Shown: piece after piece, positions 8,323 through 27,158 of the stretch
Layout: each line of letters starts with the position of its first letter
Position numbering within the stretch: the stretch's first letter is position 1
Assembly (NCBI GenBank): GCA_965226555.1
Contig: CBDDDG010000001.1
Location: 88,248-152,247, forward strand
Reading direction: 5' to 3'
From: Salinispira sp.
Lineage (GTDB): Bacteria > Spirochaetota > Spirochaetia > DSM-27196 > Salinispiraceae
DNA length: 64,000 nt
Position numbers and translations under genes: made by a program
Notes under the pieces: model-generated
The model's database searches: none
Told to the model about the DNA's origin: nothing
Seen by the model: the letters and a program-made list of their open reading frames with translations, nothing else

Positions 8323-11300
8323 TCAGAGCGGAGCGTCCGCGGATGTTCCAGCCGCAATCGTTTTCCGGTATTCTATAGCAAAGTTTTGCATTGATATCCG
8401 CCTAAGCTGCGGGCATTCGCCGGAGAGGGCGTTCAGGGCTTCGGGGTCGGCAAGCACCGTCCGGTGAGCGCCCGGAAGGGCGCGGACAAGTCGTTCGGCA
8501 GCCTGCTGAATGTCGGTTCCGGTGCTTTCAATGAGCCAGCGGCGGCGCTGGCGGCGCAGATCATCGCTTATGCCGCAGGAGAAGCGCCGAAAACTGAGGT
8601 CTCCCTTTTCCGCAGGGGAAAGGGGGTGGAGTTCCCTCCCCGCGAGATAAATTTTTGCGAGATCAAGATCCGCTTGGTTAAGAGGAGCGGATGCGAGTAT
8701 GTTCAGGCTATCGGCACAGGCAGCCCAGCTCCGGCTGATCGCAGGATCACGGTAGGTAGCAAAGCTGAATGTAGCATTGAGGGGATCTGAGTTGCAGAAT
8801 GCGCCGTAGGCGCCGCCTTCCGCGCGGATTTTATCGTGGAAAATTCCGGTGCGCAGAATGTGGCTGAGAATTTGTTCGTGAACCTGTTCCCGTTCGTTCA
8901 TACCAGATGCGGGGATGGCGAGGGCAGTAAAATTGACCTTGGAGGTATATTCTATGCCTTCGGCGCCCTCCTTTGTAGGGGTATCTGTTCTGCGCTGCAT
9001 GTGGTTGTGGTCCTGAATGAGCAGGGGCCGGGTAATGTCCGACAGCGGAGTGAGAGATTTCTGAAAAGGCGCATCGTTAACATTCCCGGTAGTCTTTCTG
9101 TCAGCCCTTCTATCAGTTTTTTTGGCAGTTTTCAGCGCATTCAGGAACTTTGCGAGCTGCGTCCGCAGGCGCGGAGCCTGTTGTTCTTCGCAGACAATAC
9201 TGAGATTAAGCGATTCAGGGCTCCATATCATGCGCATGAGGGCAGAAAGCGCAGCGGGAGAGAGAAAAATATTCCCATTTTTGCGCGCGCCGCCGCCTTC
9301 ATCAGCATTCTCTTTCAGGGAATGAGCATACTGGTGAAGAGTTTCAATAAAGCGGGACTGAATAACCCCCCACCACAGGTCATCACTGAAAGCCGAAGAG
9401 GAAAATCCGCGCCGCGCCCGTATGTCGGCGTAGTTGCTGCCGTGGGGTATTATGTCTGCGCGGAAATCGTTACGATATTCCCGGTATATCTCCCGAATAT
9501 AATGCTGATCGGAAAAATCGGCAGATACCAGAATTTCCTGCAACAGAGCGAGCCCATCTCCGCTCATATCATCCAGAGTTTTGAGGCGGATGCAGATAAA
9601 TTGCCGCTGCCCGGCGCGGTCTGAGCGTCCGGTACTCAGGCCGGTTTGTCCGGTACTCAGGCCGGTCTGCCCTGCGGCGCGCCCGGTGCTGCTAAGGTCT
9701 GTGTGGTGAACAGGACTGAGTGAGAAGCCGCCCGTTTTCAGTCCCCATTCGGTGGACATGTGAGAATACGATTTTGTTTTTGTACCGAGCTGCGGGAGGA
9801 GGTGGGCGAGGAAGGGAATAAATATCTGCAATTCTTTTTCCATGTCTGTGATGTCGAAATACACATTAATGTAGCTTACGCTGTTGGTAAAGATTTTATG
9901 GATATGAAGCGGGCATCCCTGTACATCGCCTTCCTCTCGGGGAATGGTTCGGATATCCCGCGGAATGTCATCCACCGTAAGAACAGGAAATTGTGCGATA
10001 TCTTCAGGCCGGTCTTCCTGCTGCTGGAACTTCTGAAACATTTCGCTTGTCTGCCTGAGAATATCAGGAGCATGAGCGCCGAGCGATTGAACCTTACGGG
10101 ATACGAGCTCGCGTTCAGCCTGTTCCTCGCGGGCGCTCAGTTGGGGGTCGGGACTGACCGTGAGGCGGCTGCGGTGCGGATTGCTCAGGATAGCGCGGAT
10201 TAATTCTCTGAAAAAATCCTGATCGCCGATGTTTTTCAGGTTTTCAAGATGCGCGGTGAACTGCATGGCCAGTCCTGGTGTTTCGCCATGCAGCCAGCGT
10301 TTGAGGGTTCGTAAGAGAAGACGGAGCCCAAAGGGCGCGCCGCCCTTTATTTCCCTGTTATGAAATTCAAAACGCAGAAATGAGGCCCGAATGAGATCGG
10401 GATCAAGCCCTTCGCTAACTACCCGCTCCAGCCCTGAAATAATGAGCTTTTCCACTGCTGCAGCATGTTCTGCCTGTGTTCCCCGAATTCCAATGGTGAA
10501 GACGGGTTGGCGGAAATCGCTTTCAAAACCGGTACTATCGCTCATGTCCTCCCCGAGTTCCGATTCAAGAATGAGTTTCTGAATGGGGCTGGCGGGAGTT
10601 CCGAAGAGGATGTCGCTCAGGAGCTCCATTTTAATGATGTCGGCTCCGCTTTTTGGCTCAGGAATGAGCCAGTTGATATCCACAGACGTTCCATCGTTCT
10701 TTTCTTTGTCTGCCGGATATTTCACTTCGAAGGTCCGGGGATTGTCCCAGCTCTGCTGGAGCGGAACAGTTGCGCTGCTGCGCTTTTTCAGTTCATCTTC
10801 ACTGAATCGTGAAAAAATACATTCATCGAGGAAGGTGAGGTAATCTTCACTTGCTATGTTGCCGTAAAGAAAAATTCGGCAATTTGAGGGATGATAATAT
10901 CTGCGGTGAAAGGCGCAAAATTCCTCATAGCTCAGATCAGGAATGTCAGCAGGATCACCGCCCGAATCGTAGGCGTAGGGGGTATCGGGAAGGATACTCC
11001 GATATGTCCAGTCGCGGGCTATCGATTCCTGGGTTGAATATTGAGCCTTCATCTCATTGTAGACAATACCCGCAATGCGGGCGCCGGCGCTGTCGGCATC
11101 GGTACTGTCGGCATCGGTACTGTGAGCGGCGGCGCTGCCGGCGCTGGCATCCATTTCAAGACGATGCCCCTCCTGGAGAAAATGTTCCTTACGGAGCAGG
11201 GGAAAAAAGACCGCATCGGCATAGATCGACATGAGATTAAACAGATCCTTCCGAACAGGAGAAGCCGCCGGATAGATGGTTTTATCAGGAAAGGTCATCG

Positions 11301-11643
11301 CATTCAGAAAGGTCTGCATACTTCCCTTGTAGAGCATGAAAAAGGGGTCGCGAATCGGATACCGTTCGGAGCCGCATAAGACCGTATGTTCGAGAATGTG
11401 GGCAACGCCGGTGGAATTTGCGGGCAGGGTGGTGAAATTGAAACTGAAGAGGTTTTCATCATCCGTGTTATCAACATGGTATATTTCTGCGCCGCTCAAT
11501 TCTTCAACGAAAAGAATACCACGGCTTTTATACTCGTCTAAATTGTCAACTGATTTTACCCGAAAACGTCCAATTATCTGGCCGGGAGAAAATGCGCTGC
11601 TGCCGCTGCCGTTATTGGCGCCGCGGGAAGGAATATGTTTCAT
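8323..11643 (-). CDS. Peptidase M16 family (PreP/insulinase-like, M16C) zinc protease
   Basis: 1106 aa. Inverted zinc motif HILEH followed by TVLCGSERYP. Two short in-frame tandem repeats: GQTGLST x2 at 9628-9669 and STDAD x2 at 11091-11120. Confidence 0.85.
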   Translation of the reverse strand: MKHIPSRGANNGSGSSAFSPGQIIGRFRVKSVDNLDEYKSRGILFVEELSGAEIYHVDNTDDENLFSFNFTTLPANSTGVAHILEHTVLCGSERYPIRDPFFMLYKGSMQTFLNAMTFPDKTIYPAASPVRKDLFNLMSIYADAVFFPLLRKEHFLQEGHRLEMDASAGSAAAHSTDADSTDADSAGARIAGIVYNEMKAQYSTQESIARDWTYRSILPDTPYAYDSGGDPADIPDLSYEEFCAFHRRYYHPSNCRIFLYGNIASEDYLTFLDECIFSRFSEDELKKRSSATVPLQQSWDNPRTFEVKYPADKEKNDGTSVDINWLIPEPKSGADIIKMELLSDILFGTPASPIQKLILESELGEDMSDSTGFESDFRQPVFTIGIRGTQAEHAAAVEKLIISGLERVVSEGLDPDLIRASFLRFEFHNREIKGGAPFGLRLLLRTLKRWLHGETPGLAMQFTAHLENLKNIGDQDFFRELIRAILSNPHRSRLTVSPDPQLSAREEQAERELVSRKVQSLGAHAPDILRQTSEMFQKFQQQEDRPEDIAQFPVLTVDDIPRDIRTIPREEGDVQGCPLHIHKIFTNSVSYINVYFDITDMEKELQIFIPFLAHLLPQLGTKTKSYSHMSTEWGLKTGGFSLSPVHHTDLSSTGRAAGQTGLSTGQTGLSTGRSDRAGQRQFICIRLKTLDDMSGDGLALLQEILVSADFSDQHYIREIYREYRNDFRADIIPHGSNYADIRARRGFSSSAFSDDLWWGVIQSRFIETLHQYAHSLKENADEGGGARKNGNIFLSPAALSALMRMIWSPESLNLSIVCEEQQAPRLRTQLAKFLNALKTAKKTDRRADRKTTGNVNDAPFQKSLTPLSDITRPLLIQDHNHMQRRTDTPTKEGAEGIEYTSKVNFTALAIPASGMNEREQVHEQILSHILRTGIFHDKIRAEGGAYGAFCNSDPLNATFSFATYRDPAISRSWAACADSLNILASAPLNQADLDLAKIYLAGRELHPLSPAEKGDLSFRRFSCGISDDLRRQRRRWLIESTGTDIQQAAERLVRALPGAHRTVLADPEALNALSGECPQLRRISMQNFAIEYRKTIAAGTSADAPL

Positions 11644-12325: not shown

Positions 12326-13701
12326 ATCATGCTCCTCGGGTCAAGAATTGAATTGAGTTCATCTTCACTGATAATTTTCTCTTCAAGAACAAGATCGCGA
12401 ATTTTTTTCTTCTCCCTGTATGCCCGGTAGGCCAGCGTACTCGCCCGATCATAGCCGATTTTCACAGCCAGCGGAGTAACCATGGCGAGGCTCCAGTCTA
12501 TCCAGTAACGGCAGCGTTCGCTGTCGGCCGCGGCGCCGCGAATGGCCTTGTCGGCCAGTGTGTTGCAGGCCTTTGTGAGTATGGTAATGGAGCTCAGCAC
12601 TTCATAGGCTATGAGGGGGTTCATCATGTTCAGTTCGAGAGGCGCGTTCTGTCCTCCCATGGTAACGGAAATGACCTTACCGTGAACATGGGCAGCAACC
12701 TGAATGATCATTTCCGGAATAACAGGGTTCACCTTCCCGGGCATAATGGAGCTGCCGGGCTGAAGGCTGGGAAGAAGAATTTCACCGAGGGCGCCGCGGG
12801 GACCGCTGGCAAGAAGGCGCAGATCGTTGGCAATTTTCATAAGCGATGTTGCAAGAACATTCACTGCCCCCATAAATGCTACCTGAGCGTCTCGGGCGGC
12901 AATGCCTTCAAACTTGTTAGCGGCAGGAACAAAGCCTATGCCGGTATCGGCGGCAATGCCGGAAATTGCGCGGTCGGCAAAGTCCGGGTGAGTGTTCAGA
13001 CCCGTACCAATTGCCGTACCGCCGAGGGGAAGTTCTTCCATGTCAGCAAAGCTGTTGCGGATGCGCGCCGCGGCCTTTTGAATTTGCAGGGCGTACACAG
13101 CAAATTCCTGACCGAGGGACATGGGTACGGCGTCCTGAAGGTGGGTTCGCCCGAGTTTGAGTACCTCGGAAAATTCATCGGCCTTTGCCGTGAAGGCATC
13201 GGCGAGGTTGGTAAGTGAGGCGAGCAGGCCATCCGCTTCAACGCGGTTGGAAATGTGCAGGGCTGCGGGGATAACGTCGTTTGAGCTTTGTCCGCGGTTG
13301 ACGTGATCATTCGGATGTACGGGTTTCCGCATGCCGATGGGTTCGCCGAGAATTTCATTTGCGCGGTTGGCGATGACTTCGTTCGCGTTCATATTGCTGC
13401 TGGTGCCGCTGCCGGTCTGAAACACATCAACCGGAAAATGGTCATTCCATTTTCCCTCATACACCTCTGTTGCGGCCTGTATAATGGCCTCCGCACGTTC
13501 CGGCTCCAGAAGTCCGAGCTCCCGGTTCGCAGCGGCGGCATTCTTCTTAATGAGGGCGATTGCCTGAATCATTGCCGACGGCAGGACAATGCCCGATATC
13601 CTGAAATTCTCTACAGCCCGCTGTGTCTGCGCGCCCCAATAGGCCCATGCGGGAATTTCAATATCTCCCATGCTGTCTGACTCAATTCTTTTTTCATTCA
13701 T
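12322..13701 (-). CDS. fumC: Class II fumarate hydratase
   Basis: 459 aa. Lyase-1 signature GSSIMPGKVNP, plus HPNDHVNRGQSSND and WGAQTQRAVENF. The Gly in the signature favours FumC over AspA. Confidence 0.85.
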   Translation of the reverse strand: MNEKRIESDSMGDIEIPAWAYWGAQTQRAVENFRISGIVLPSAMIQAIALIKKNAAAANRELGLLEPERAEAIIQAATEVYEGKWNDHFPVDVFQTGSGTSSNMNANEVIANRANEILGEPIGMRKPVHPNDHVNRGQSSNDVIPAALHISNRVEADGLLASLTNLADAFTAKADEFSEVLKLGRTHLQDAVPMSLGQEFAVYALQIQKAAARIRNSFADMEELPLGGTAIGTGLNTHPDFADRAISGIAADTGIGFVPAANKFEGIAARDAQVAFMGAVNVLATSLMKIANDLRLLASGPRGALGEILLPSLQPGSSIMPGKVNPVIPEMIIQVAAHVHGKVISVTMGGQNAPLELNMMNPLIAYEVLSSITILTKACNTLADKAIRGAAADSERCRYWIDWSLAMVTPLAVKIGYDRASTLAYRAYREKKKIRDLVLEEKIISEDELNSILDPRSMI

Positions 13702-14616
13702 AAAAATTTTTGCTCCTGAAAGTTTCCGCTATATGGCAAGCATTTCATATAGTTCTCCATAAATTCCCAATTCGGGTTGCCATCCTCATTATAAGGATAT
13801 TTGCCTTCTCCGTACTCCTTTATTTCCTTCTTTGTAAAACTCTTTGAACCTTTTATTTCAAATAGATCTTTCAAACTAAAATACTGCCACTTATGAAGTG
13901 GAATAATGGGTGAGCCATGCCTTCTTAATGCTGTCCCATTTATTATCATAATTTGCCCTGCCTCCCACTTTCATATTATAAAAACCATCATTTTTCCAGT
14001 AGGCAAAATATGACTTGTACCCTTCTCTGTGTGGTTCCTTGGCTTTCATAACAATTACACACGTTGTTGTACCTGCCTTTCATTAAATTACTTCTCCCAT
14101 CGCCATGAATGTACATATTGGAGCATAGGAGCGAATAAATATCGTGTTGGAATTCAACACCTACTATTTGACTTTGTTTAATGTGCCTTTCTTTTTCTTC
14201 ATTGCCACCAGCATCTCTAATCATGTTTTTCATGGCAGATATTAAGAATCCACCGGTACCCGTGCAGGTATCTAAAACCACAGAAGCCTTGTTCACATAG
14301 GCTATTTCAGAAAATAATTCTGTTATATGGGGAGGAGTCAAAACTATGCCCAAACCTTTGTCGTTATTGGCACATCGTAAAAATTCTATATAAAACTGCC
14401 CGAGGGCATCGAAGTACTTATATTGTTATCATCGCCGCTAACAGCAATGGCAAGAACATCGTATTCTTTAGACAAAAAAGAGGCATAGAGCAAAACCCCA
14501 TCGACAGCATAACTCCCATATTGTTTTCTATTCTGGCTTTCGTGTTGAGTTACACTGGCCTTACATTCAACAACAATGATTACATGTACATTTTCCGTTA
14601 TTCTCTCGTTAGCCAT
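13698..14616 (-). pseudogene. Decayed N6-adenine DNA methyltransferase / R-M subunit (nuclease-like N-domain, SAM domain, specificity-domain remnants) split into three frames
   Basis: ORFs 14386-14616 (VIIVVECK, ExK-type HsdR_N-like), 13988-14353 (TPPHITELF...DTCTGTGGFL motif I, no intact NPPY/F motif) and 13698-13949 (WQYFSLKDLFEIKGS, TRD-like start fused to a conserved end). They are collinear but lie in different frames. Confidence 0.6.
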
Positions 14617-14648
14617 TTATCTCCCTCTGCGCTGAATGGTCCACAAGA

Positions 14649-14726
14649 GAAACTTTTGCAAAGCACAATTTTCAGTAGCAAAACTTTCCAAGAGTATAAC
14701 AGAAACCTTCATTAATGCAAAAGTTT
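14649..14726. repeat. Degenerate copy of the AAACTTTTGC/GCACAATTT palindromic repeat family, 3-prime flank of the SIR2 operon
   Basis: GAGAAACTTTTGCAAAGCACAATTTTCAGTAGCAAAACTTTCC ... AATGCAAAAGTTTTT shares arms with the elements at 18407, 20353, 45694, 49342 and 49905. Confidence 0.6.
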
Positions 14727-15872
14727 TTATCTGAATTTTATTGATGATAAAAACGATGCAGCCGATTCTAATCCTTTCCAGAAAAAGTCATTCTCATTAA
14801 TATTGTGGAAAATAGTAGAAAAGTTCTTCATTAATTGACGCCTGTGATCTTTTTCCTTCTCTTTTTGGATGATTTTAACAGCTGGAGGATTATTTCTCAA
14901 TGATACAGCGCGCAGAAAAATATCGCGAATATCAATATCGGAAACGGGGAGCGAATAGCCAATAAAGGTAATTTTATGAGCATTTTGAATTGCATGGAGT
15001 ACCTCCGTTTGTATCGATTGAAAACTCCCAATAAATTTATGCTTATGAAAAGTTGGCGTTACAATAATCGGCTGCAATGCAACACTGCGCTTCGATAAAA
15101 TTTGTCGATCCTCATCGGATTCAAAAAGAATTGGAATTTCTGTAGATTGCTGAGTATTCTGCCCTGTCGATTCTTGCAAAATTTCTTCTGATTTTTTATC
15201 TGAAAAACAATAGATGCACGTTTCATATTCTAGGGATTGAGAATCTACTCTGAATAAACGCTCGCATGCCGGACACAATCGCCAATCGATGGAGCCATGA
15301 GGCTTGAGTACTGTTATTGGTTTTTGATTCGAATCGGTATCTGTTCCATTTTTCATTACTATTGGGATGGTATCTCCAAAATGAATATCATACTCATAAT
15401 CTTGCTTGAGAAGCATTTCCAATAGCCAATCCCAATTCATGCTAATAAAGGTTACCTGTACATTTTCTTGAATAATCTGACTCATTAATGAATGAAACGG
15501 GCTCGGATCAATATCATGGCTCATCTGTTCTGTTAAGAGAATGAGAATGAGTGAATTTAAAGACGTTTTAATTTCTAATAATTTTTGCGGAGTATAAGTT
15601 CCTAAATTTCTTTCTGCTGCAATTGCTGAATCAATACTGCTATAGACATCTTCCAATAATATCTGCTCCTCAATAGTTTGATTACCGTAAACTGCTCGCA
15701 AAAATTTCACAACATCATGTACTAAAGGAGCAGATTCAATGCTTACGCGTTCACGAAAATCATCTGCCAGAATTTTAGTAAGCAATTGTTCCTGAAGAGG
15801 AAATCCCATCGCGCGGGAGAATCCGGCACCGATAATTACCGTGTGTGTTTTTGCTGGATGAGTTTTATCCAA
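14727..15872 (-). CDS. SIR2-family (SIR2_2-like) protein, predicted NAD-consuming effector
   Basis: 381 aa with a TTG start. Landmarks: VIIGAGFSRAMGFP, FISMNWDWLLE (TTNYD-like, Asn position), VLKPHGSIDW (catalytic His position), CPAC-x19-CIYC zinc ribbon, ITFIGYSLPVSDIDI. Overlaps the upstream gene by 37 nt. Confidence 0.8.
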   Translation of the reverse strand: MDKTHPAKTHTVIIGAGFSRAMGFPLQEQLLTKILADDFRERVSIESAPLVHDVVKFLRAVYGNQTIEEQILLEDVYSSIDSAIAAERNLGTYTPQKLLEIKTSLNSLILILLTEQMSHDIDPSPFHSLMSQIIQENVQVTFISMNWDWLLEMLLKQDYEYDIHFGDTIPIVMKNGTDTDSNQKPITVLKPHGSIDWRLCPACERLFRVDSQSLEYETCIYCFSDKKSEEILQESTGQNTQQSTEIPILFESDEDRQILSKRSVALQPIIVTPTFHKHKFIGSFQSIQTEVLHAIQNAHKITFIGYSLPVSDIDIRDIFLRAVSLRNNPPAVKIIQKEKEKDHRRQLMKNFSTIFHNINENDFFWKGLESAASFLSSIKFR

Positions 15873-17197
15873 ATTTTTAGGTGCTCCGTAGATGTATATT
15901 CAGATTTTTTATTCCATTCAATGAAATCATGCAGGTTTTTCATATTGATCTTATCCTCTACAATCTCAGAAATTTTATTCAACACAAAATGCACTTGATT
16001 ATTCCACAATGTTTCAGATGTCGGCATGAGCTTTTCAGTATTGGGGATTGCTTTTCTCGCCCCATAATGTTCGGCAAAAACTGTTTGAGTAAATTTCCCT
16101 GGGGACAATATTTCATGGCATTTCAAGCAGCCGCACACTTTCTTAGTATAGGCTGAATCAAATTCCTTTCTCATTTGCAGAATTGCATCGACAATTTCAA
16201 ACCTCATTCGCTGTTGCGCGTACGGCAAATAAAATTTGGCAGTCGGTAGTCCTCCTCCAACCGGCAATACGCTGCGATATTCTCCATAACCCGGCCCATG
16301 AGCAATACCATTCAGTCGTTTTTCTTTTTTCAAAAGCGTAGAAAACCCGCCTCCATATAAATTAATGACTTTTTTACCTTTATAGTTAAAATGTATGAGC
16401 AATTCCCGATACGCTTGCAGGTATTTTTCATTTTGAGAAGTCTCGTCAAAATTATTAATCCACAACAGCAATGTGGAAATTTTTGATGTGGAATACACGT
16501 CCTTAATCTGCTTCATTTTATCTGGGTCTAATAAAACACTCTTTTCTACAATTATCTCCAAAGCAGTCTCTATATCGTCATTTCTTGGATTTTTGTCATA
16601 CTCTTGAATAATCGTTTTGTTTATTTTTAACGCTTTGTCAAAATCTGCAAGAGTCATGTATAAGCAGGGCAGTATTATAAATGTTGGTTTAGGAGAAATA
16701 TCGGATTCTTCTTCGTAATCAGAATAACCTTTTTTTTCCATTGCTTCTTGGGACAGGCTGTTTTGAATATAATGTGTTTGAAATTCCAGAACATTTTTCG
16801 TGAGGTCACTAATATTGGCTGCTATATCGGAGAATTGGAGGGCTTGCTTGGTTTTGATAATTTGTTGGCCTAAGCGACCAAAACGCTGCAGTAATTTCTC
16901 CATAGATTTCTTTAGAGTCATACTATCTGTGTTCGCGTAGTACTTCAGTGGGTCTATGGTGAGAACATACGTCATAGGATCAATAAAAAATGAACAGTTT
17001 CCGAATGTTATTGTGAGCATTTTGGCAATTGCCGCCGGCGTATGTACGGCAACATTGCCGTTTATTACGATTCCAGTTTTTTTCTGGGAAATATATTGTT
17101 TTATTAAAGGTTCCAAGAGAATTTTTTTCTCGTTGTGAGAACCGAATCGGATAAACTGTTCAGTTTTCATTATGCTGCCTGCATAATTTAATATCAT
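15836..17197 (-). CDS. Hypothetical protein with a TGT/DpdA-like motif layout (CxCxxC)
   Basis: 453 aa, or 444 aa from the alternative ATG at 17170. Ordered motifs FFIDPMTY, VINLYGGGFSTLL, NGIAHGPGYGEYR, CGCLKC, NNQVHFVLNKI. Overlaps both neighbours. Confidence 0.55.
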   Translation of the reverse strand: MILNYAGSIMKTEQFIRFGSHNEKKILLEPLIKQYISQKKTGIVINGNVAVHTPAAIAKMLTITFGNCSFFIDPMTYVLTIDPLKYYANTDSMTLKKSMEKLLQRFGRLGQQIIKTKQALQFSDIAANISDLTKNVLEFQTHYIQNSLSQEAMEKKGYSDYEEESDISPKPTFIILPCLYMTLADFDKALKINKTIIQEYDKNPRNDDIETALEIIVEKSVLLDPDKMKQIKDVYSTSKISTLLLWINNFDETSQNEKYLQAYRELLIHFNYKGKKVINLYGGGFSTLLKKEKRLNGIAHGPGYGEYRSVLPVGGGLPTAKFYLPYAQQRMRFEIVDAILQMRKEFDSAYTKKVCGCLKCHEILSPGKFTQTVFAEHYGARKAIPNTEKLMPTSETLWNNQVHFVLNKISEIVEDKINMKNLHDFIEWNKKSEYTSTEHLKIWIKLIQQKHTR

Positions 17198-17600
17198 CGA
17201 ATATTTCTAAAAAATTCTTTCTTAAAAATTCATTATGCATTCTTGATTTTTTGTCGACAATCTTTTCTATTTCTTTCTTATCTTGATCCCAAATATAAAA
17301 TGAGAGATCAAATTTGTTTATTTTTTCTTCAATTGTTGTTGTATTGCGCGGGACAGTTGCCTTCGGCATAATGAGAATTGCCTTGTCGACAACACAGCTG
17401 TGATCCTTCAATTGTTCAATAGCTCTCTTCCAATTCTTTAGTTTTACTTCAATAGAAATTAAGGAATTGTCCTTTTGCAAAAATATGTCTACAATACGCG
17501 ACATGAGGGGAATTTCCCTATAAACCTTGTACGTTTTTCCGTCCAACGGTTCATGGGTAAAATACCTAAGCAATTCCGTTTGAACTTTTGCCTCCGTCAC
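17160..17600 (-). CDS. Small PD-(D/E)xK (restriction-endonuclease-fold) protein
   Basis: IVDIFLQKDNSLISIEVKLKNWKRAIEQLKDH is a D...ExK...Q pattern. A GTG at 17600 overlaps the upstream TGA (GTGA), giving 146 aa. The 203-aa ORF-track version (start 17771) would overlap the upstream gene by 175 nt. Confidence 0.55.
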   Translation of the reverse strand: MTEAKVQTELLRYFTHEPLDGKTYKVYREIPLMSRIVDIFLQKDNSLISIEVKLKNWKRAIEQLKDHSCVVDKAILIMPKATVPRNTTTIEEKINKFDLSFYIWDQDKKEIEKIVDKKSRMHNEFLRKNFLEIFDDIKLCRQHNEN

Positions 17601-18217
17601 AACGTATATTCTCCCAATACTTGGTTTTTTATTAATGAATTTTTCGTAGAATCGGGATATCGCGTGTAAACATAGTGCAGAATTGTCTGTAAGGTTTTGT
17701 GTATAATGCTTGTTTTGAATCGTACGAGAATTTCCCGTTGGGGTTCGGTTAAATTTGTCCATGAAAACCATTTCTGAGGCGAGGTAATAACTTTCTTTCC
17801 TTCTCCGCTAAGCGTATATTTTTCAATTTCATGCGTATAATCATTAATCCCTAAATTATCATTTTCAAAACCCCTCATATTCGATTCCCAGACATCATCG
17901 GCTCTACCTATTTGAGAATAAGAAATGCTTATAGTAAGCATATGTTTCGCGTTTAAAAAATCCACTGCTTCCAACACGTCTGTGCTGAATGGTCCAAAAT
18001 TATAGGCTTCAAAATCAAAAGAAGAAATATTGTCAGACGGATTCAGGAATTTCTGCTGTACTTCCTGCTCAAAAAGGTACATCATCTTCATTAATCGCGT
18101 TCTGCCAGTAATTGGATATGCGATATTTTGATCCAGATCGCCGTATAAGGTGAGATGCACCGGCGCATAAAGCAGCAGGTGTAAAATATGAACGCATTTA
18201 TAATTTTTCTTCGGCAT
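17597..18217 (-). CDS. SocA/Panacea (DUF4065)-like protein, first gene of the SIR2 operon
   Basis: 206 aa. GRTRLMKMMYLFEQE...FDFEAYNFGPFSTDVLEAVDFL matches my recollection of the DUF4065 core (KLQKLLY...W.YGP). The C-terminal YTLSGEGKK looks wHTH-like. Confidence 0.5.
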   Translation of the reverse strand: MPKKNYKCVHILHLLLYAPVHLTLYGDLDQNIAYPITGRTRLMKMMYLFEQEVQQKFLNPSDNISSFDFEAYNFGPFSTDVLEAVDFLNAKHMLTISISYSQIGRADDVWESNMRGFENDNLGINDYTHEIEKYTLSGEGKKVITSPQKWFSWTNLTEPQREILVRFKTSIIHKTLQTILHYVYTRYPDSTKNSLIKNQVLGEYTL

Positions 18218-18223
18218 GACAAG

Positions 18224-18251
18224 AGTATATCAGAAACCTTTATTTATGCAA
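18224..18251 (-). promoter_or_regulatory. Sigma70-like promoter of the SIR2 operon (near-leaderless)
   Basis: Minus strand reads TTGCAT (18251-18246), a 16-nt spacer, TATACT (18229-18224), then 6 nt (CTTGTC) to the ATG at 18217. No Shine-Dalgarno sequence is present. Confidence 0.4.
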
Positions 18252-18406
18252 ACCTTTTTGATACAGTCTTCTACCCACATAGCATTCACCCCGCATTCAA
18301 GAGCAATCCGACCTTACCATATTGTATTCATCATTAACAATGATAGCACTGGGACGATATCGCCATACATGCCTTTTCTTTTGTTTTCCAAATGTATATA
18401 CTGCGA

Positions 18407-18475
18407 TAAAACTTTGCTACTGAAAACTTTGTTACTGGAAATTGTGCAAGCACAATTTTCCAATGCAAACGTTTC
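18407..18475. repeat. Palindromic repeat-family copy, 5-prime flank of the SIR2 operon
   Basis: GATAAAACTTTGCTACTGAAAACTTTGTTACTGGAAATTGTGCAAGCACAATTTTCCAATGCAAACGTTTC. Confidence 0.7.
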
Positions 18476-19712: not shown

Positions 19713-20347
19713 ATTTTTCGAAAATAAGTATGTATTGTATCGGTATATTATCCGCATTATTCATCCTGTCCTGCGCCAGCATACCGCCCGAAGCAGTTGA
19801 GCTTTCAACAGCGGTGGAATCGCGAATTACTGAAACAAAGTCCATGCATCAATCGCTGGTGAGAAGCTATTTCGATGCCCGATATGCTCTTGTTGACGAT
19901 TATATGTATAATGAGTATGTGGACGACTATATTGAAAATATATTCAATAACCCTGCCATTCACGAAGCATGGAATGAGATCAGAACTGGTGAAAATGAGG
20001 AAGACAGAAACATGTTCTTCCGAGTTGTGACCCTGCGGCTCTTTCAGAATGTGCAGGATCAACGCAAGCAGCTTATATCTCCCATTCAAGAACGGGAAAA
20101 CGAGTTATTGCAGGCATTAGACCAATACTATGGCGATACTCTGGCAGCTCATAGATACATTACAGACCTGTTGGCATCGGCGGCAGACCTCAATGCAACT
20201 CGTAATGAACTATTCGCCGACATTGTTGGCGAAACCCCCGATTTTTCAGGTATTATTGATCAGATTAATCGGGCAAGCAACACGCTACGAGCTGGCGGAG
20301 AAAGCGCAGAAGAAGCATTGAACAAGACTTTGGAAATAATCCAGTAA
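19709..20347 (+). CDS. Putative lipoprotein, function unknown
   Basis: 212 aa. Signal peptide with lipobox (ILSALFILSC-ASIP). The remainder is predicted helical. Confidence 0.6.
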   Translation: MNFSKISMYCIGILSALFILSCASIPPEAVELSTAVESRITETKSMHQSLVRSYFDARYALVDDYMYNEYVDDYIENIFNNPAIHEAWNEIRTGENEEDRNMFFRVVTLRLFQNVQDQRKQLISPIQERENELLQALDQYYGDTLAAHRYITDLLASAADLNATRNELFADIVGETPDFSGIIDQINRASNTLRAGGESAEEALNKTLEIIQ

Positions 20348-20352
20348 CCATA

Positions 20353-20407
20353 ACAAAGTTTTGCTACTGGAAATTGTGCACGCACAATTTTCCAATGCAA
20401 AAGTTTC
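20353..20407. repeat. Single-hairpin copy of the palindromic repeat family between two co-oriented genes
   Basis: ACAAAGTTTTGCTACTGGAAATTGTGCACGCACAATTTTCCAATGCAAAAGTTTC, immediately followed by the RBS AAGGAGG. Confidence 0.75.
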
Positions 20408-20424
20408 TAAGGAGGAAAAATTTT

Positions 20425-20685
20425 ATGGCAATTAATTGGAATAACGTAACGAAGGGAATAGATGAATCAAAACCAGATATTCCCTCCAGGATATCGTCCC
20501 TTACCCATTTCACCGACAAAGAGATTAGCTCATTGTTTCCTGCTGCGGGGGATCAGAAGAATCTTGCCGATTTAATGGCGACGGTAAAGAATGCCACCAA
20601 TGAAAATGCAAAGCAGAAGGCGATAATTGACAATGTAACGAAGTTTGCAAAAACACTTGTCACCATTATTGATAAGGTGGTGTAA
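20425..20685 (+). CDS. Small hypothetical protein (86 aa)
   Basis: ATG 20425 lies 7 nt after AAGGAGG (MAINWNNVTKG...). The ORF-track start 20374 falls inside the repeat element. Confidence 0.5.
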   Translation: MAINWNNVTKGIDESKPDIPSRISSLTHFTDKEISSLFPAAGDQKNLADLMATVKNATNENAKQKAIIDNVTKFAKTLVTIIDKVV

Positions 20686-20688
20686 TTT

Positions 20689-21045
20689 ATGCTGAGTTTA
20701 ATTATCGCTGAAGCAATAGTTTTTGTTTCAACAGTACTAATAGTGATTGCGGCCTACACAAGAGCTGGCAAAATGAATGATGAGCATTTACGAGGACTTG
20801 CCCTCCCGAGGGGAAGTGTTCGAGCCATTTTCACATTATGGCTGGTTGGGTCATTTGCGGTTTTCACGTTATTTGGCGAGGAAGCAATGTCGAGTGTTGA
20901 GGCATATCAGCAGGGGTTATCTGCCCTCTCTGGAGTTACCGGATCGGTATTAGGTTTCTACTTTGGCGGACGCAGCGCAACCCCGCTCCCCGAGTCTGAA
21001 AAGAACCCCGCATCGAAAGCAGAACAGAATTCCATATCAACGTGA
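20689..21045 (+). CDS. Small membrane protein (about 3 TM helices)
   Basis: 118 aa with hydrophobic segments IIAEAIVFVSTVLIVIAAY, AIFTLWLVGSFAVFTLF and LSGVTGSVLGFYFG. Starts 4 nt after the previous stop. Confidence 0.5.
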   Translation: MLSLIIAEAIVFVSTVLIVIAAYTRAGKMNDEHLRGLALPRGSVRAIFTLWLVGSFAVFTLFGEEAMSSVEAYQQGLSALSGVTGSVLGFYFGGRSATPLPESEKNPASKAEQNSIST

Positions 21046-21114
21046 TCGTGAGGTCATCGAAAGGGCATCGCGAACTATGGGAGCCCTCTCTTTTTGGGTG
21101 CGAAACGCTGGCTA

Positions 21115-22374
21115 ATGATACAGACAATTTTTAAGTATGGCATGAGTGAATTTTTTGCGAAGGGCCTGAATGTTATACTCCTATCGCTCGTATTACCCGC
21201 GCTGCTCGACATTGAAAGTTACGGACAGGTCGCTATCATTATTGCGATTGAAATGATTTTTCTTGTATTACTGACCTGTAATCAAAACACCGTAATGCTC
21301 CGCTTATATAGTTCTTTCAAAGGAAAACTATTCCATCTCTATAGTGTTTCATTTGGAATTGTTCTAATAATGGCTGCTGTTTTACTCATTTTGTACGTTG
21401 CGTTGTTTGCAACAAATATATTGAACTTTGAGAATATTAAAAATTATACAATTCTCTTTATTATTATTGCGGCTGCATTACAAGGACAATTTGCGTTATA
21501 TCTTGCCTATCTTCGAAAGGAAAACAGGGTCGACGAGTACGGCATTAGTCGAATATGTTATCAGATAGTTAAATTCTGTATAGTTGCGGGAGGAGCTGTA
21601 ATACTCAGAGATGTCACAGCGTACCCCCTCGGCATTTTGGTATCGAATATTGTCGTATTTGTGTTTATCGGAGTTAGAAATCGGCATCGTTTTACAACTT
21701 TCAGAGTACATTTTTCAGAAATTTTCACTAATGTGAAATCGGTTTTTAAAGACAATATGCATATTGCGCTTCCTCTGACCATAAGTTCGCTTATTACATC
21801 AATGTATACCTTTATTGATCGATTCATACTTCAGTATTTTCTCACTATGCAACAGGTAGGAGTCTATAATTTTGCGCTTACCTTAGGAAATACGATCTAT
21901 TTTTTTGTTTACGTTCTCAGCCTATCCTATGTTCCGGTTATATATGAAAACAAGGAGTATGATCATCATACCGCTAAGCTCTTACGTACATTTCTTATTG
22001 TCGCAATGCTTACTTCCCTGGGCGCAGTCGTTGTAATATATTTTTTCATATTTCCATTTACGCTGCAATTTGTTCCATCGGACTATGAGGATGGGCGGGT
22101 AGTTCTCCTTCTTGCATCCGGTGCAATGGTTATTAATACACTAACCTTGTATGGCACCTATACCTTGATCAGCCTGCGGAAAGTGATACTAATACCCATT
22201 CTTACACTTGGCGCATTAATTATTAAAGTAATTCTGAACTATTTTTTTATTCCATTGTATGGAATTAATGGTTCAGGTATGGCAGTCATTCTCAGTGAAT
22301 TTTTGCATGGGCTTTCGTTTATAATTGTCGCTCGGGTACTTGTAAACAGAAATCGAAGCAAGATCAGTTTGTAG
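21115..22374 (+). CDS. Polysaccharide biosynthesis protein / Wzx-type flippase
   Basis: About 12 predicted TM segments and 419 aa from ATG 21115 (the ORF track uses TTG 21094). First gene of the AT-rich glycan block. Confidence 0.65.
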   Translation: MIQTIFKYGMSEFFAKGLNVILLSLVLPALLDIESYGQVAIIIAIEMIFLVLLTCNQNTVMLRLYSSFKGKLFHLYSVSFGIVLIMAAVLLILYVALFATNILNFENIKNYTILFIIIAAALQGQFALYLAYLRKENRVDEYGISRICYQIVKFCIVAGGAVILRDVTAYPLGILVSNIVVFVFIGVRNRHRFTTFRVHFSEIFTNVKSVFKDNMHIALPLTISSLITSMYTFIDRFILQYFLTMQQVGVYNFALTLGNTIYFFVYVLSLSYVPVIYENKEYDHHTAKLLRTFLIVAMLTSLGAVVVIYFFIFPFTLQFVPSDYEDGRVVLLLASGAMVINTLTLYGTYTLISLRKVILIPILTLGALIIKVILNYFFIPLYGINGSGMAVILSEFLHGLSFIIVARVLVNRNRSKISL

Positions 22375-22489
22375 TGTGTAATGAAATGAGAAACGATGAA
22401 TTATTTTCTGGTTGAATTCGCCCGCTTGTAAAAAAAATTATGGACAAGTATAATAGAATTATGCAAAAATTTCTACAAGGAGAATCATT

Positions 22490-23365
22490 GTGGTAAAAGT
22501 TGTCGGTGAAATTGGGTGCAATCATCAAGGAAAAATGGACATTGCAAAAGAGCTCATTAAAATAGCGGCTGTTTTTTGCAAATGTGACTACGTTAAGTTC
22601 CAGAAGAGATCAAATAAGGAACTTCTAACTGTAGAAGAGTACAATGCTCCCCACCCTGTTCCGAAGAACTCTTATGGAAGAACCTATGGTGAGCACAGAG
22701 AATTTCTTGAATTCAACTTAGATCAACATAAAAAACTCCAACATTTGTGTAATGAATTTAATATCGGATACTCGACATCTGTATGGGATATGACTTCAGC
22801 CCGAGAAATGTCTACCCTCAATTGCGATTTTATCAAAATACCTTCTGCCTGTAATTTAGACTATACAACCCAAAAATATCTCATTGAAAATTTCCATGGT
22901 GACATTCACGTTTCCACAGGAATGACCACAAAAAACGAAATTGAAGCGATTGTTCGTTTTTATGAAGAAAACAATGCCGCCCATCGACTTGTTTTATATG
23001 TATGCACTTCAGGATACCCTGTGAGTTTTGAAGATGTTTGTTTGTTGGAAATTACTCGCTTTAAAAAACTTTACGCCGCGAGGGTTAAGGAAATTGCCTT
23101 CTCAGGGCATCATCTTGGAATTGCTGCGGATATAGCCGCAGTCACTTTGGGAGCTGCCTGGATAGAAAGACACTACACGCTTGACAGGGCATGGAAAGGA
23201 ACTGACCACGCGGCATCCTTAGAACCCGATGGTTTAAGAAAACTCACAAGAGACATAAAAGCTGTCGAAAAGACCCTTACCTACAAGAATAAAGATATTC
23301 TGGACATCGAAAATGTCCAGCGAAGAAAACTCAAAAGAACCCGGGAGAATTTTGCCCATGCTTAA
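22490..23365 (+). CDS. neuB: N-acylneuraminate(-9-phosphate)/nonulosonate synthase family protein lacking the C-terminal SAF domain
   Basis: GEIGCNHQGKMDIAKELI, VKFQKR, IKIPSACN, TGMTT, FSGHHLG. Only 291 aa, versus about 340-350 aa for NeuB with an SAF domain (from memory). Confidence 0.75.
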   Translation: MVKVVGEIGCNHQGKMDIAKELIKIAAVFCKCDYVKFQKRSNKELLTVEEYNAPHPVPKNSYGRTYGEHREFLEFNLDQHKKLQHLCNEFNIGYSTSVWDMTSAREMSTLNCDFIKIPSACNLDYTTQKYLIENFHGDIHVSTGMTTKNEIEAIVRFYEENNAAHRLVLYVCTSGYPVSFEDVCLLEITRFKKLYAARVKEIAFSGHHLGIAADIAAVTLGAAWIERHYTLDRAWKGTDHAASLEPDGLRKLTRDIKAVEKTLTYKNKDILDIENVQRRKLKRTRENFAHA

Positions 23366-24530
23366 AAAAATCGTAGCTCTCATTCCACTTAGGGGGGGAT
23401 CAAAAAGCATTCCTCACAAAAATATCAAAGTAATAGCTGGGAGACCCCTCTTTTTCTGGACAACGCGAGCCGCTGTTGAATCTAACGTTTTTTCTGATGT
23501 TTATATATCCACAGATTCAAACGAAATTACGGAATGTGTTCGCAAATATTTTAATGAAACAGAAGTTACCGTGCTAAAGAGAGCCGATTATTTGGCAACC
23601 GATGAAGCCTCGACAGAAGCCGTTATGCTCAATTTTGCCAGCAAATACGATTTTACTGATATATGTCTTATACAGGCAACATCTCCCATCACAAGTGTTC
23701 AGGATATAAAAAACGCCTTCCTGTTATATACGCAAAACAAATTCGACTCCCTTTTTACAGCCGTACAATTTAAACGATTTTTATGGGGGTATGATTCCAA
23801 CCCCATTACCTATGATTTTCGCAACCGCCCGCGAAGACAGGAATTTAAAGGCTGTCTTATGGAAAACGGATCGTTTTATTTTACCCGGCGCGAAATTTTG
23901 TTGAACGAGAAAAACCGTCTCGGAGGGAAAATTGGCTATTATGTTATGGCTGAAGAAACAGCCGTTGAAATAGATGAACCGAGCGATTGGGATATTGTTG
24001 CTCGCCTCATCCAAAAAAACTCTCTTCTCTATTTTAAACGTTCCCTAGAACACATTAGGGCCATAATTTTCGATGTTGATGGAACCATGACCGATGCGGG
24101 AATGTATTATGGCGAAACCGGTGAAACTCTCAAAAAATTTAACACACGCGATGCTGAGGGAATCGCTTGTTTAAGAGAACAGGGAATAAAAATAGGTGTT
24201 ATTACGGGAGAGAACAGCCCTTCAGTCACCTCAAGAATGAATAAACTACAAATTGAATGCTATGAGAAGGACGTTTCTAACAAATTGCCAGTATTCAATA
24301 AAATGATACAGAAATGGGGATTGTTGCCTTCTCAGGTTGGCTATATGGGCGATGACATTAGTGACAAATTATGCATGGAAGCTGCGGGTTATAGTTTCTG
24401 CCCCCAAGATGCCGTTGAGAATGTAAAACATCTTGCGGGCTTTGTCTGCGCTGAAAAATCGGGAGAAGGGGCGGTAAGAGAAGTGGCCAATGTAATACTA
24501 AAAAACATATCGCCTGCCCAATTGTCATAA
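23358..24530 (+). CDS. neuA: Fusion protein: CMP-nonulosonate synthetase (cytidylyltransferase) + HAD-type (KDO8P/Neu-9-P-like) phosphatase
   Basis: N-terminal half has ALIPLRGGSKSIPHKNIK. C-terminal half has IFDVDGTMTD (DxDGT), ITGENS and MGDDISD. ATG 23358 overlaps the neuB stop (ATGCTTAA). Confidence 0.75.
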   Translation: MLKKIVALIPLRGGSKSIPHKNIKVIAGRPLFFWTTRAAVESNVFSDVYISTDSNEITECVRKYFNETEVTVLKRADYLATDEASTEAVMLNFASKYDFTDICLIQATSPITSVQDIKNAFLLYTQNKFDSLFTAVQFKRFLWGYDSNPITYDFRNRPRRQEFKGCLMENGSFYFTRREILLNEKNRLGGKIGYYVMAEETAVEIDEPSDWDIVARLIQKNSLLYFKRSLEHIRAIIFDVDGTMTDAGMYYGETGETLKKFNTRDAEGIACLREQGIKIGVITGENSPSVTSRMNKLQIECYEKDVSNKLPVFNKMIQKWGLLPSQVGYMGDDISDKLCMEAAGYSFCPQDAVENVKHLAGFVCAEKSGEGAVREVANVILKNISPAQLS

Positions 24531-24531
24531 C

Positions 24532-25788
24532 ATGAAAAAAATTATCTATTTCGATTCCTGGACACTGGGAATTCAGAATTATTGTTCCATTGACAGACTA
24601 CTGCGAAACGACTGTCAGACTCTCCTTCTCCATGTAGAAAGTCTGGTAGTTCCCTATTTCGCTTCTCATGTTGACACCTCCTGGTATAGAGCTGAAAAAG
24701 AACAAAGAATCTCCGGTATCCATTGTAAGGATATTTCCGCGTACAACGGAATGACAATTGCGGACATTCTGAAAACAGAAGCCCCCAATGTTGTTGTGCA
24801 GCTAAATGTGTCGCATCTTCAGAACCGAATGGTAACAGCAGCCTGCAAGCGTCTGGGTATAAAGGTAGTGTTTATGATGCACGGCGCAATCCGCAACCTG
24901 AATGAGGCCGAGTCGCTTGCTACCAGCCTGACAGAATCGCATAAACATAATATTTCGCTTAAAGTCAAAAAAATCCGTAAATATATCAGGCTTCTGCGTG
25001 AATACCACGCGGCTTCAGGGAAAATCAGCGATACCCTAAACATTGCCCGACAAGTATTTTCTTCACCGTTTAAATTCACATGGAATCCAGAGCCTCATTT
25101 TTCATTAAATGTCGACAAATCTTTCGTCTATACAATTGCAGACATTCATTCTCTGTCGGAAGTATTTGGCATTCCATTAAAAAATAGTATGGCTGTCGGG
25201 AATCCAAAACTGGATCCGATATTGTCTGAACCGCATCAGAAAACACAACGGCAGTCTGATAAACTGAGGCTTTTATATATTGAAGGATCGGTCAATGATC
25301 TGAAGATGATGGATGATTCACAGCAAATGAATATTCTTTCATTTCTGAACGAAGCGGCAAAGCGAAACAAACTTGAATTTGTTATTAGACTCCACCCCGG
25401 TACAAACCGAAAGAATTTCATTCAGAAATTTGGTTCCGAGTATCAGTATTCGCCAGCAGATGAATCGTTGAAAAACTCCCTCCTTAATGCAACAATAATT
25501 ACCGGGCATCACTCAACAGCAATGCTGGAAAGTATTGCCTACCGCATACCGACCATTTCCCTGTTGTGGTTTGGAGGGGCACTCCAGCGCATTGTTGTTA
25601 ATGAACATGATGTGGGAATTGTCAGACAAAAGAGCTCATTTGAAGAAAAACTGCGGGAGTTTCTTAAAAACGGCTGGATGCAGGAAGAAACCCGCAAAAC
25701 ATTATTTCCCCGGGGTGACATACCCGCGGCAGAAAATATTGTTGCGGAAATTAGGAAATTGGCAGACACAGAATCTGCCGTATTATGA
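24532..25788 (+). CDS. Hypothetical protein, possible sialyl/nonulosonyl-transferase
   Basis: 418 aa. YIEGS and IRLHPGT resemble the D/E-D/E-G and HP motifs described for bacterial sialyltransferases. Sits immediately after neuB-neuA. Confidence 0.35.
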   Translation: MKKIIYFDSWTLGIQNYCSIDRLLRNDCQTLLLHVESLVVPYFASHVDTSWYRAEKEQRISGIHCKDISAYNGMTIADILKTEAPNVVVQLNVSHLQNRMVTAACKRLGIKVVFMMHGAIRNLNEAESLATSLTESHKHNISLKVKKIRKYIRLLREYHAASGKISDTLNIARQVFSSPFKFTWNPEPHFSLNVDKSFVYTIADIHSLSEVFGIPLKNSMAVGNPKLDPILSEPHQKTQRQSDKLRLLYIEGSVNDLKMMDDSQQMNILSFLNEAAKRNKLEFVIRLHPGTNRKNFIQKFGSEYQYSPADESLKNSLLNATIITGHHSTAMLESIAYRIPTISLLWFGGALQRIVVNEHDVGIVRQKSSFEEKLREFLKNGWMQEETRKTLFPRGDIPAAENIVAEIRKLADTESAVL

Positions 25789-25888
25789 AAAAATTAATTC
25801 TGGCCTATGGTTTCAGCGAAGGTATAGCGAAAAGCTTGAACATGCGGATAATGGCGCGCGGAACGCAGAGCATTCCAAAGGAATAAGT

Positions 25889-27127: not shown

Positions 27128-27158
27128 AAGTACTGTTATCTGTACAGGAGGCAAGAAG

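Follow-up and report, generated by a model that had tools for sequence, protein, structure and literature searches.

Gene T, its family and its operon

The 64,000-nucleotide stretch analysed here (the window) comes from Salinispira sp. (assembly GCA_965226555.1, contig CBDDDG010000001.1, positions 88,248 to 152,247) and carries on its reverse strand an operon of four genes: gene A, gene B, gene T and a gene for a SIR2 protein. Our subject is gene T (15836–17197, −), an intact open reading frame of 453 amino acids (aa) whose product is predicted to fold into a TIM barrel, followed towards the C terminus by a helical subdomain in which a CxCxxC...H motif lies. An earlier note on this DNA had aligned the protein by hand with tRNA-guanine transglycosylase (TGT) and linked it to the TGT-fold enzyme DpdA and to SIR2. 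The position, strand and length of the reading frame were exact as reported there, and all of the strings quoted from T were found (FFIDPMTYVL at residue 70, KKVINLYGGGFSTLLKKEKRLNGIAHGPGYGEYR at 275, CGCLKC at 355 and NNQVHFVLNKI at 399). The strings given for Escherichia coli Tgt match the actual tgt gene b0406. What stands of that observation is the reading frame, the strings, the zinc motif and the missing nucleophile Asp; the other motif resemblances carry no measurable sequence signal, as described below. The likelier start of T is M10 at 17170, which gives a product of 444 aa. It coincides with the public gene call and with the point at which homologue alignments begin. Residue numbering follows the 453-aa version throughout.

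A word-indexed homologue search returned just 9, and then 25, relatives of T. This apparently tiny family was corrected by an exhaustive search, which found 584 T clusters at 50% identity (E up to 1e-3), 370 of them with E up to 1e-10. Scans of the window protein against Pfam, NCBIfam and PADLOC gave no match. No Pfam family was matched consistently by any of 95 T members, and among these PADLOC-DB v2.0.0 yielded only two chance-level matches. In every source the members are named 'hypothetical protein'. Searches of PDB sequences by phmmer and by hmmsearch with family profiles returned chance matches only and no TGT. Loci were retrieved with a degenerate DNA pattern for YGExRxxxPVGGGxP, made by hand from a conserved block of T, which hit 108 stretches in 185,579 species genomes and 5 viral contigs. 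The pattern was specific for the family, with a true member in 118 of the 121 retrieved loci. Carriers include Clostridia and other Firmicutes, Bacteroidota, Planctomycetota, Saccharibacteria and Parcubacteria (candidate phyla radiation), Spirochaetota (including a Treponema), Chloroflexota and, in the Proteobacteria, Pseudomonas. Cultivable carriers are Aeribacillus composti KCTC 33824, Halanaerobium congolense DSM 11287, Gracilibacillus suaedae and Pseudomonas cuatrocienegasensis CIP 109853.

Conservation was counted in an alignment of 139 full-length T representatives. The Cys3-His motif to which the earlier note had drawn attention is a family feature: the complete set of C355, C357, C360 and H403 was present in 135 of 139 diverse members, which are 22–38% identical to the window protein. 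The proposed zinc ligands C355-G-C357-L-K-C360 are encoded at 16118–16135 (−). The proposed fourth ligand, H403 (codon 15989–15991, −), lies within a long helix (394–413) and is invariant in two family alignments. The spacer between the last Cys and the His varies from 25 to 57 residues across the family and is 42 residues in the window protein. FFIDPMTYVLT (16958–16990, −), at the end of barrel strand 3 (strand E70–73 in both structure models described below), contains D73-P74-x-T76; D73 was found in 137, P74 in all and T76 in 134 of the 139 members. The most conserved block of the family, GIAHGPGYGEYR...PVGGGLPTAKFY (16229–16309, −), covers strand 8 and the next loop and holds H300, Y304-G305-E306, R308, P312, G314–316, P318 and Y323. 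Its family consensus reads H-G-x-(E/G)-Y-G-E-x-R-x-V-x-P-V-G-G-G-x-P-x-(A)-K-x-Y.

Conservation of at least 90% was observed at D73, P74, T76, K96, Q140, P171, P177, Y178, F179, N193, W246, E252 and G282, at S286, H300, Y304, G305, E306, R308, P312, G314–G316, P318 and Y323, and at C355, C357, C360, H403, E411 and W443. The window protein, which is at most 38% identical to any other member, departs from the family at the near-invariant positions F79L, Q80T, Y178C (the sole Cys among the 139), F179L and D248N. These positions are near-invariant in its closest relatives as well.

Neighbouring genes were clustered and partners counted over the 118 loci with a true T. A constant core, A-B-T, recurred: A (about 195 aa) was found in 95 of the 118 loci and B (about 143 aa) in 94, mostly directly upstream of T; the same clustering counted SIR2 in 71. 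The fourth gene, the effector, is exchangeable. It was SIR2 (about 400 aa, directly downstream of T) in 70 loci and a three-transmembrane protein, X, in 32, and no locus had both. X is about 175 aa long, very divergent, has 2–4 hydrophobic segments and is placed between A and B. About 80% of the gene junctions overlap. The T tree follows the effector type: over its 90 leaves the type switches 3 times, where about 26 switches would be expected. The connection of T to SIR2 that the earlier note had drawn is thus conserved, directly downstream in 70 loci with about 80% of those junctions overlapping. The note had left out the two further constant genes (Panacea and PD-(D/E)xK) and the exchange of SIR2 for another effector, and the family is not rare. 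Length variants were seen at three loci, L107 (149–1990), L089 (1598–3397) and L124, namely a T of 613 aa with about 160 extra residues and SIR2 proteins of 599 and 636 aa, which may have arisen by fusion to additional domains.

In the window the first gene of the operon, A (17597–18217, −), encodes a 206-aa protein with a putative SocA/Panacea (DUF4065) domain (PF13274, E 1.2e-3). The PF13274 SocA_Panacea profile was matched by 23 of 40 A homologues (best 1.3e-6), and the window protein scored 20.2 bits against a cut-off of 25.7. It also gave a weak match to PADLOC PDC-M19A. Gene B (17160–17600, −) has a GTG start that overlaps the stop codon of A (GTGA) and encodes a 146-aa protein resembling small PD-(D/E)xK nucleases. 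Conservation among 43 homologues of B is complete or at least 90% at E27, D36, E49-x-K51 and Q61, which make up the motif E..D..E-x-K..Q. In the PDB, B comes closest to the NucS catalytic domain 2vld_A, at a marginal E of 0.0029, and its weak Pfam matches are all to PD-(D/E)xK families.

The SIR2 effector gene (14727–15872, −) encodes 381 aa and overlaps T by 37 nucleotides. Its TTG start was chosen because it is needed to include the motif GAGFS. The product matched PF13289 SIR2_2 above threshold (6.2e-7) and PADLOC SIR2 models down to 3.5e-13, and its PDB matches were the defence SIR2 proteins 8w9l and KomC. Invariant in 40 homologues were G15-A-G-x-S19, N146-W-D148, H192-G-S and the cysteines C200, C203, C219 and C222 of a CxxC...CxxC zinc ribbon. 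With all catalytic motifs present, the SIR2 protein is predicted to be an NADase effector.

Predicted fold and remodelled active site of T

AlphaFold2 models of T were obtained from alignments of 9 sequences (pLDDT 83, pTM 0.86) and 95 sequences (pLDDT 92.7, pTM 0.92). In both, eight strand-helix units are interrupted after strand 3 by a helical insertion of about 100 residues that leads to strand 4, strand 8 is followed by a hairpin, and a C-terminal helical part bears the Cys and His residues. In Foldseek searches of the PDB most of the top ranks for the first model were TGT enzymes, and for the second model TGT enzymes occupied ranks 1–11 (best E 3.9e-4, probability 1.00). These were bacterial TGTs, mouse QTRT1 and archaeal ArcTGT, aligned over about 465 columns with TMq 0.40–0.43, TMt 0.47–0.50 and a root-mean-square deviation (rmsd) of about 8 Å. 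Generic barrels (DERA, aldolases) followed from E 3e-3, with TMt 0.50–0.55 over about 300 columns, and many TIM barrels matched the model at a probability of at least 0.97. In the viral structure library BFVD a 'putative queuine tRNA-ribosyltransferase' was at rank 2. Since both models and the Foldseek matches agree, the prediction that T is a (β/α)8 TIM barrel is solid. In these models TGT is the closest known architecture, with full-length alignments to its enzymes, in the Foldseek comparison that the note had proposed. True members of the TGT superfamily match one another far more closely; DpdA and TGT superpose at 2.8 Å over about 290 residues (PMC10164549).

Sequences from E. coli, a phage collection, viral contigs and metagenomes were used for profiles of Tgt and DpdA, which were compared by hhalign. 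The T family matched Tgt at a probability of 4–9% with a score of 30.9. A positive control, Tgt against DpdA, reached just 21–38%, and the hhalign test is therefore underpowered. A relaxed hhalign path was co-linear and paired D73 with D89, LLWIDxFxE with GGLAVGE, CGCLKC with CDCYTC and H403 with H333 (T and Tgt, respectively), its Asp part being without statistical weight. Shuffling the columns of the Tgt profile lowered the score from 30.9 to 16.6 ± 2.9, and shuffling in 12-column blocks left it unchanged at 30.8 ± 2.3. Deletion of Tgt residues 298–310 alone, which contain CxCxxC, reduced the score to 13.0, the background level, and a deeper 87-sequence Tgt profile gave the same result. Because the block shuffle keeps the score and the CxCxxC deletion removes it, all of the T–Tgt profile signal comes from the zinc motif. 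By the same shuffling and deletion controls, the resemblances to Tgt that the note had seen in FFIDP, LYGGG and the His helix have no measurable sequence signal, and the hand alignment was set aside as evidence for TGT, the zinc motif excepted. Nor did the proposed check against PF01702 and DpdA profiles show similarity beyond CxCxxC: the window protein had no PF01702 match at E up to 1, and none of the 95 members had one at E up to 0.1.

The hallmarks of TGT and DpdA are an invariant set of three Asp residues, namely a general acid/base, a base-recognition residue and a nucleophile, and a zinc site CxCx2Cx22-25H whose His lies on the terminal barrel helix (PMC10164549). The acid/base is D102 in the Zymomonas mobilis enzyme (Zm), D89 in E. 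coli (Ec) and D95 in DpdA; the base-recognition residue is Zm D156 and DpdA D130; the nucleophile is Zm D280, Ec D264 and DpdA D256. The nucleophile and base-recognition residues are essential in DpdA (PMC10164549). From its place in the sequence at the end of strand 3, D73 of T is a plausible counterpart of the general acid/base. There is no conserved acid at the end of strand 4, the site of base recognition, where the family reads P177-Y178-F179 (C and L at 178–179 in the window). For the nucleophile, strand 8 ends in G-[VI]-x-H300-G, and position 300 is never Asp or Glu in the 139 members (His 126, Asn 5, Tyr 2, Gln 2, Cys 1). The replacement of the nucleophile region by AHGPG, described for the window protein in the earlier note, is therefore family-wide. 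The nearest conserved acid is E306, five residues on. Because two of the three invariant Asp of TGT and DpdA are missing throughout the family, T, TGT-like in architecture, is no canonical transglycosylase.

T has a strongly conserved polar set of its own: D73, K96, Q140, Y178, N193, W246, E252, S286, H300, Y304-G-E306, R308, Y323 and R330. The conserved residues sit at the C-terminal ends of the predicted barrel strands, and the putative pocket and zinc-motif residues are 97–100% conserved in both SIR2-type and transmembrane-type systems. Two other chemistries were considered and rejected, glycoside-hydrolase clan A on strands 4 and 7, which have no Glu at their ends, and class I aldolase/DERA chemistry on strand 6, which has no Lys.

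T as predicted shares with the TGT/DpdA family (PF01702; Z. mobilis TGT, QTRT1, ArcTGT and DpdA of S. Montevideo) the barrel, the CxCxxC with a late-helix His and an Asp at the end of strand 3. It differs from these enzymes in having neither of the two other Asp nor the N-terminal β lid, in the stretch of about 100 residues inserted ahead of strand 4, after strand 3, and in its zinc spacer of 25–57 residues. It differs further in having no profile similarity past CxCxxC, in its looser superposition and in having no queuosine, preQ0 or Dpd genes nearby.

Genomic setting of the cassette

The operon lies in an island of 36% G+C between housekeeping genes of 50–52%. A 40-nt direct repeat that carries a promoter-like TTTGCA-17-TGnTATACT brackets the four-gene cassette precisely. 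The upstream copy is at 18220–18259, and the downstream copy (14689–14728) overlaps the 3' end of the SIR2 gene, whose stop codon is at 14727. The promoter-like site itself (TTTGCA-17-TATACT with a TG extension, 18224–18252, −) lies upstream of A and is a consensus match only. Exactly two copies of the 40-nt repeat, 88% identical, occur in the 64 kb, and none is expected by chance. The repeats may mark exchange of the cassette through recombination between promoter regions. A further repeat pair lies at 14661–14688 and 18448–18475. The downstream 40-nt copy is also the upstream region of a decayed type I restriction-modification (RM) system in the same low-GC island, which consists of an HsdS piece (13698–13949), an N6_Mtase piece (13988–14353) and a third fragment (14386–14616) with weak, sub-threshold HSDR_N likeness, all on the reverse strand.

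Across the retrieved loci the recurrent flanking genes of T were serine recombinases, tyrosine integrases, S24 repressors, C5 and Dam methylases and HpaII endonuclease, the setting of mobile defence islands. In locus L001 a SIR2 protein of 467 aa and a HerA/DUF87 ATPase (13800–17323) lie 4.5 kb downstream of the T cassette, past a recombinase gene, so that two different SIR2-based systems share one island. In L007 (2–4237) a transmembrane-type T cassette is directly preceded by genes for a 1080-aa protein and for a protein with an MZB domain (PF09369); the pair probably marks another defence system. T-SIR2 stands beside an S24/LexA-type repressor in L039, L041 and L049 (and in the IMG/VR viral contigs L037–L041), with A and B downstream on the opposite strand, an arrangement that suggests carriage in prophage immunity regions. 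L094, from a contig labelled E. coli (CAVGNR010000002.1), has the order T-SIR2-A-B with SIR2 split into 207 and 283 aa, beside an HpaII-type RM system. Megablast of the 4-kb region of L094 against 5,426 complete E. coli genomes gave no match; the contig may therefore have been binned wrongly, or E. coli may carry the cassette only very rarely.

Two other features of the window were recorded. A second low-GC stretch (20000–28000, 37–41% G+C) is a surface-polysaccharide locus with genes for a NeuB-like sialic-acid synthase (22490–23365), a CMP-sugar synthetase/HAD fusion (23313–24530) and polytopic membrane proteins resembling O-antigen flippases or polymerases. At 8323–11643 (−) a 1106-aa peptidase-like protein contains the short tandem peptide repeats STDADSTDADS and GQTGLSTGQTGLSTG in an otherwise ordinary sequence.

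A putative defence role and its alternatives

The reading that we favour, and hold at even confidence, is that T is the signature subunit of a translationally coupled A-B-T-effector operon that behaves like an abortive-infection system against phage. T would not exchange guanine or deazaguanine; instead its former TGT pocket would bind a base-like or nucleotide-like ligand, or carry out non-canonical chemistry on such a ligand. Such a ligand might be a base flipped out of phage nucleic acid, or a small molecule that arises in infection. The NucS-like B would engage or process nucleic acid together with T, and the Panacea protein A would hold the effector back in the manner of an antitoxin. The toxins neutralised by Panacea antitoxins are diverse, and transmembrane toxins that depolarise the membrane are among them (PMC8832971). 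Once infection was sensed, the A-B-T core would release or activate the effector, and either NAD+ depletion by the SIR2 NADase (the window type) or membrane damage by the three-transmembrane protein would stop the infected cell. We counted in favour of defence the low-GC island, the broken RM system, the recombinase, integrase and RM neighbours, the SIR2-HerA pair near the cassette in L001, the exchange of effectors and the five matches in viral or prophage contigs.

Several points weigh against this reading. The relationship to TGT is weak (E 4e-4, TM 0.40–0.50, about 8 Å), with DERA and aldolases within a factor of 10 in E, and the Cys matches themselves may raise TGT in the combined 3Di+AA ranking. 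The profile comparison gives nothing beyond CxCxxC, in a test whose Tgt–DpdA control shows it to be underpowered. We infer the defence role of the operon from association and effector logic, and the roles of A and B are assigned by analogy with their families. The strong conservation of the putative polar pocket would be expected of an enzyme no less than of a passive sensor. Finally, because of its five unique substitutions at near-invariant positions, the window copy of T may be atypical, functionally diverged or decaying.

An enzyme is what two related alternatives propose. T may be an active glycosylase or base exchanger with new residues (E306 and/or D73 with H300) that removes or exchanges a base of phage DNA or RNA, and this base may be a modified one. 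B would then cut the damaged site, T and B would form a restriction-like pair, and the effector would be a second, suicidal layer. The enzyme-like conservation of the pocket speaks for this, as do E306 and D73, which are 96–100% conserved, the place of E306 five residues past strand 8, the site of the TGT nucleophile, the glycosidic-bond chemistry of the TGT fold and the apparently intact catalytic residues of the nuclease-like B. Yet no acid stands at the nucleophile-equivalent strand end in the 139 members, the base-recognition Asp is missing, and restriction by T and B, if sufficient, would make the effector and an antitoxin-like protein needless, whereas nearly all complete loci have an effector. 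We consider this unlikely. We give no better chance to a closely allied proposal, in which T would be a catalytically active branch of the TGT fold with a Glu/His site in place of the Asp nucleophile, and base cutting or exchange, or its product, would unleash the SIR2 or membrane effector. The same missing Asp bear on the proposal that the operon performs DpdA-like self/non-self DNA modification, with T inserting 7-deazaguanine or another base and B restricting unmodified DNA. The TGT-like architecture with its zinc motif, the nuclease-like gene adjoining T and the precedent of DpdA itself recommend it, but both the nucleophile and the base-recognition Asp are lacking, and queC/D/E, folE, dpdB and dpdC were absent from the 118 loci, where only A, B and the effector recur besides mobile and RM genes. 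Interchangeable toxic effectors, moreover, point to abortive infection and not to restriction-modification. A DpdA-like DNA modification role is unlikely because no preQ0 or Dpd genes co-occur with T, and the full self/non-self scheme we regard as extremely improbable. Taken as a whole, the note's interpretation is supported in the predicted barrel, the Cys3-His motif, the missing Asp and the SIR2 link, and finds no support in profile similarity beyond CxCxxC, in the looseness of the structural match or in a DpdA-like role.

The likeness to TGT may also be generic or convergent. T would then be an unrelated TIM barrel, for example a sugar-phosphate-binding or nucleotide-binding one with Gly-rich strand-7 and strand-8 loops, that acquired a Cys3-His module independently and still serves in the same operon. 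All of the profile-profile signal does come from CxCxxC, TM values of 0.4–0.5 lie within what unrelated TIM barrels show (DERA and aldolases reached TMt 0.50–0.55 over about 300 columns), the zinc spacer is 25–57 residues against 22–25 in TGT and DpdA, and no Pfam TGT match was found in the 95 members. Against this, TGTs from three domains of life were at ranks 1–11, the result came from two independent models, only the TGT matches align through the C-terminal subdomain (about 465 against about 300 columns), and the relaxed hhalign path was co-linear (D73/D89, CxCxxC/CxCxxC, H403/H333) in a test that is underpowered by its Tgt–DpdA control. To our knowledge, only the TGT superfamily has a CxCxxC with a late-helix His immediately behind a TIM barrel, and we counted this against convergence as well. 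Overall we think convergence improbable, to about the same degree as an active glycosylase. A different kind of alternative takes the cassette to be an addiction or toxin-antitoxin module of mobile elements that has no part in phage defence, with T and B as accessory regulators. The Panacea antitoxin domain of A suits such a module, A directly precedes the transmembrane protein in loci of that type, as in PanA-PanT, and recombinases and integrases are common neighbours. Such modules, however, have two or three genes, and here two more large and highly conserved genes are constant; the RM genes and SIR2-HerA in the same islands fit defence; and many toxin-antitoxin systems act in defence, so that the distinction is partly semantic. 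We judge a pure addiction role decidedly unlikely, less so than the self/non-self scheme.

The abortive-infection reading has partial counterparts among known systems. In type IV CBASS, Cap10 belongs to the TGT family but has been remodelled so that it binds a CD-NTase carrying a deazaguanine (bioRxiv 10.1101/2025.04.06.647259). T resembles it in having a predicted TGT-type fold in a putative anti-phage operon, with a non-tRNA role and a separate toxic effector, and Cap10 shows that the fold can be repurposed for sensing or regulation. Cap10, though, keeps the catalytic D248 and the base-reading Asp and Ser residues and has no zinc site, whereas T keeps the zinc motif and has lost the Asp, and the QueC-like Cap9 and CD-NTase partners of Cap10 are missing from the T operon. 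A conserved core with a SIR2 or transmembrane effector is also found in short pAgo systems (SPARSA, SiAgo-Aga2), Thoeris, DSR, SIR2-HerA and Kongming (KomC), none of which has a counterpart of the core of Panacea protein, PD-(D/E)xK nuclease and TGT-like barrel. PanA-PanT shares the Panacea protein and, in transmembrane-type loci, the placement of A directly ahead of a small transmembrane protein. It differs in that the T operon has four genes, two of them extra and constant, in that the Pfam scores of A are mostly below gathering thresholds and in that A is not next to SIR2 in SIR2-type loci. The PanAT survey left out operons of more than three genes by design (PMC8832971). B shares with NucS/EndoMS the motif E..D..ExK..Q and has the NucS catalytic domain as its best match, but it is only about 140 aa long, has no N-terminal DNA-binding domain and matches marginally (E 0.003). 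A relationship of the operon to QatB/QatD was considered and rejected, and the TGT of the BRC system, a canonical Pfam TGT in a different context, was dismissed as an equivalent of T.

No description of the T family or of the four-gene combination was found in Pfam, NCBIfam, PADLOC v2 or the searchable literature. The use of a TGT fold in defence (DpdA, Cap10, BRC) and the exchange of SIR2 and transmembrane effectors (short pAgo) were known before; the T sensor core is apparently new. Should the operon prove to be a defence system, the known repertoire would gain a sensor core that is widespread and wholly unannotated. Should T work through a Glu/His site, it would represent a new sensing chemistry in bacterial immunity, in a widespread four-gene system that no database recognises. 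If the operon serves in defence, T would also be a third independent recruitment of the TGT fold to immunity, after DpdA and Cap10, with the zinc motif kept and catalytic Asp lost, and so a natural experiment on what a TGT pocket can become. The clean exchange of SIR2 for a three-transmembrane protein, together with a Panacea-type partner, leads to concrete and cheap experimental predictions.

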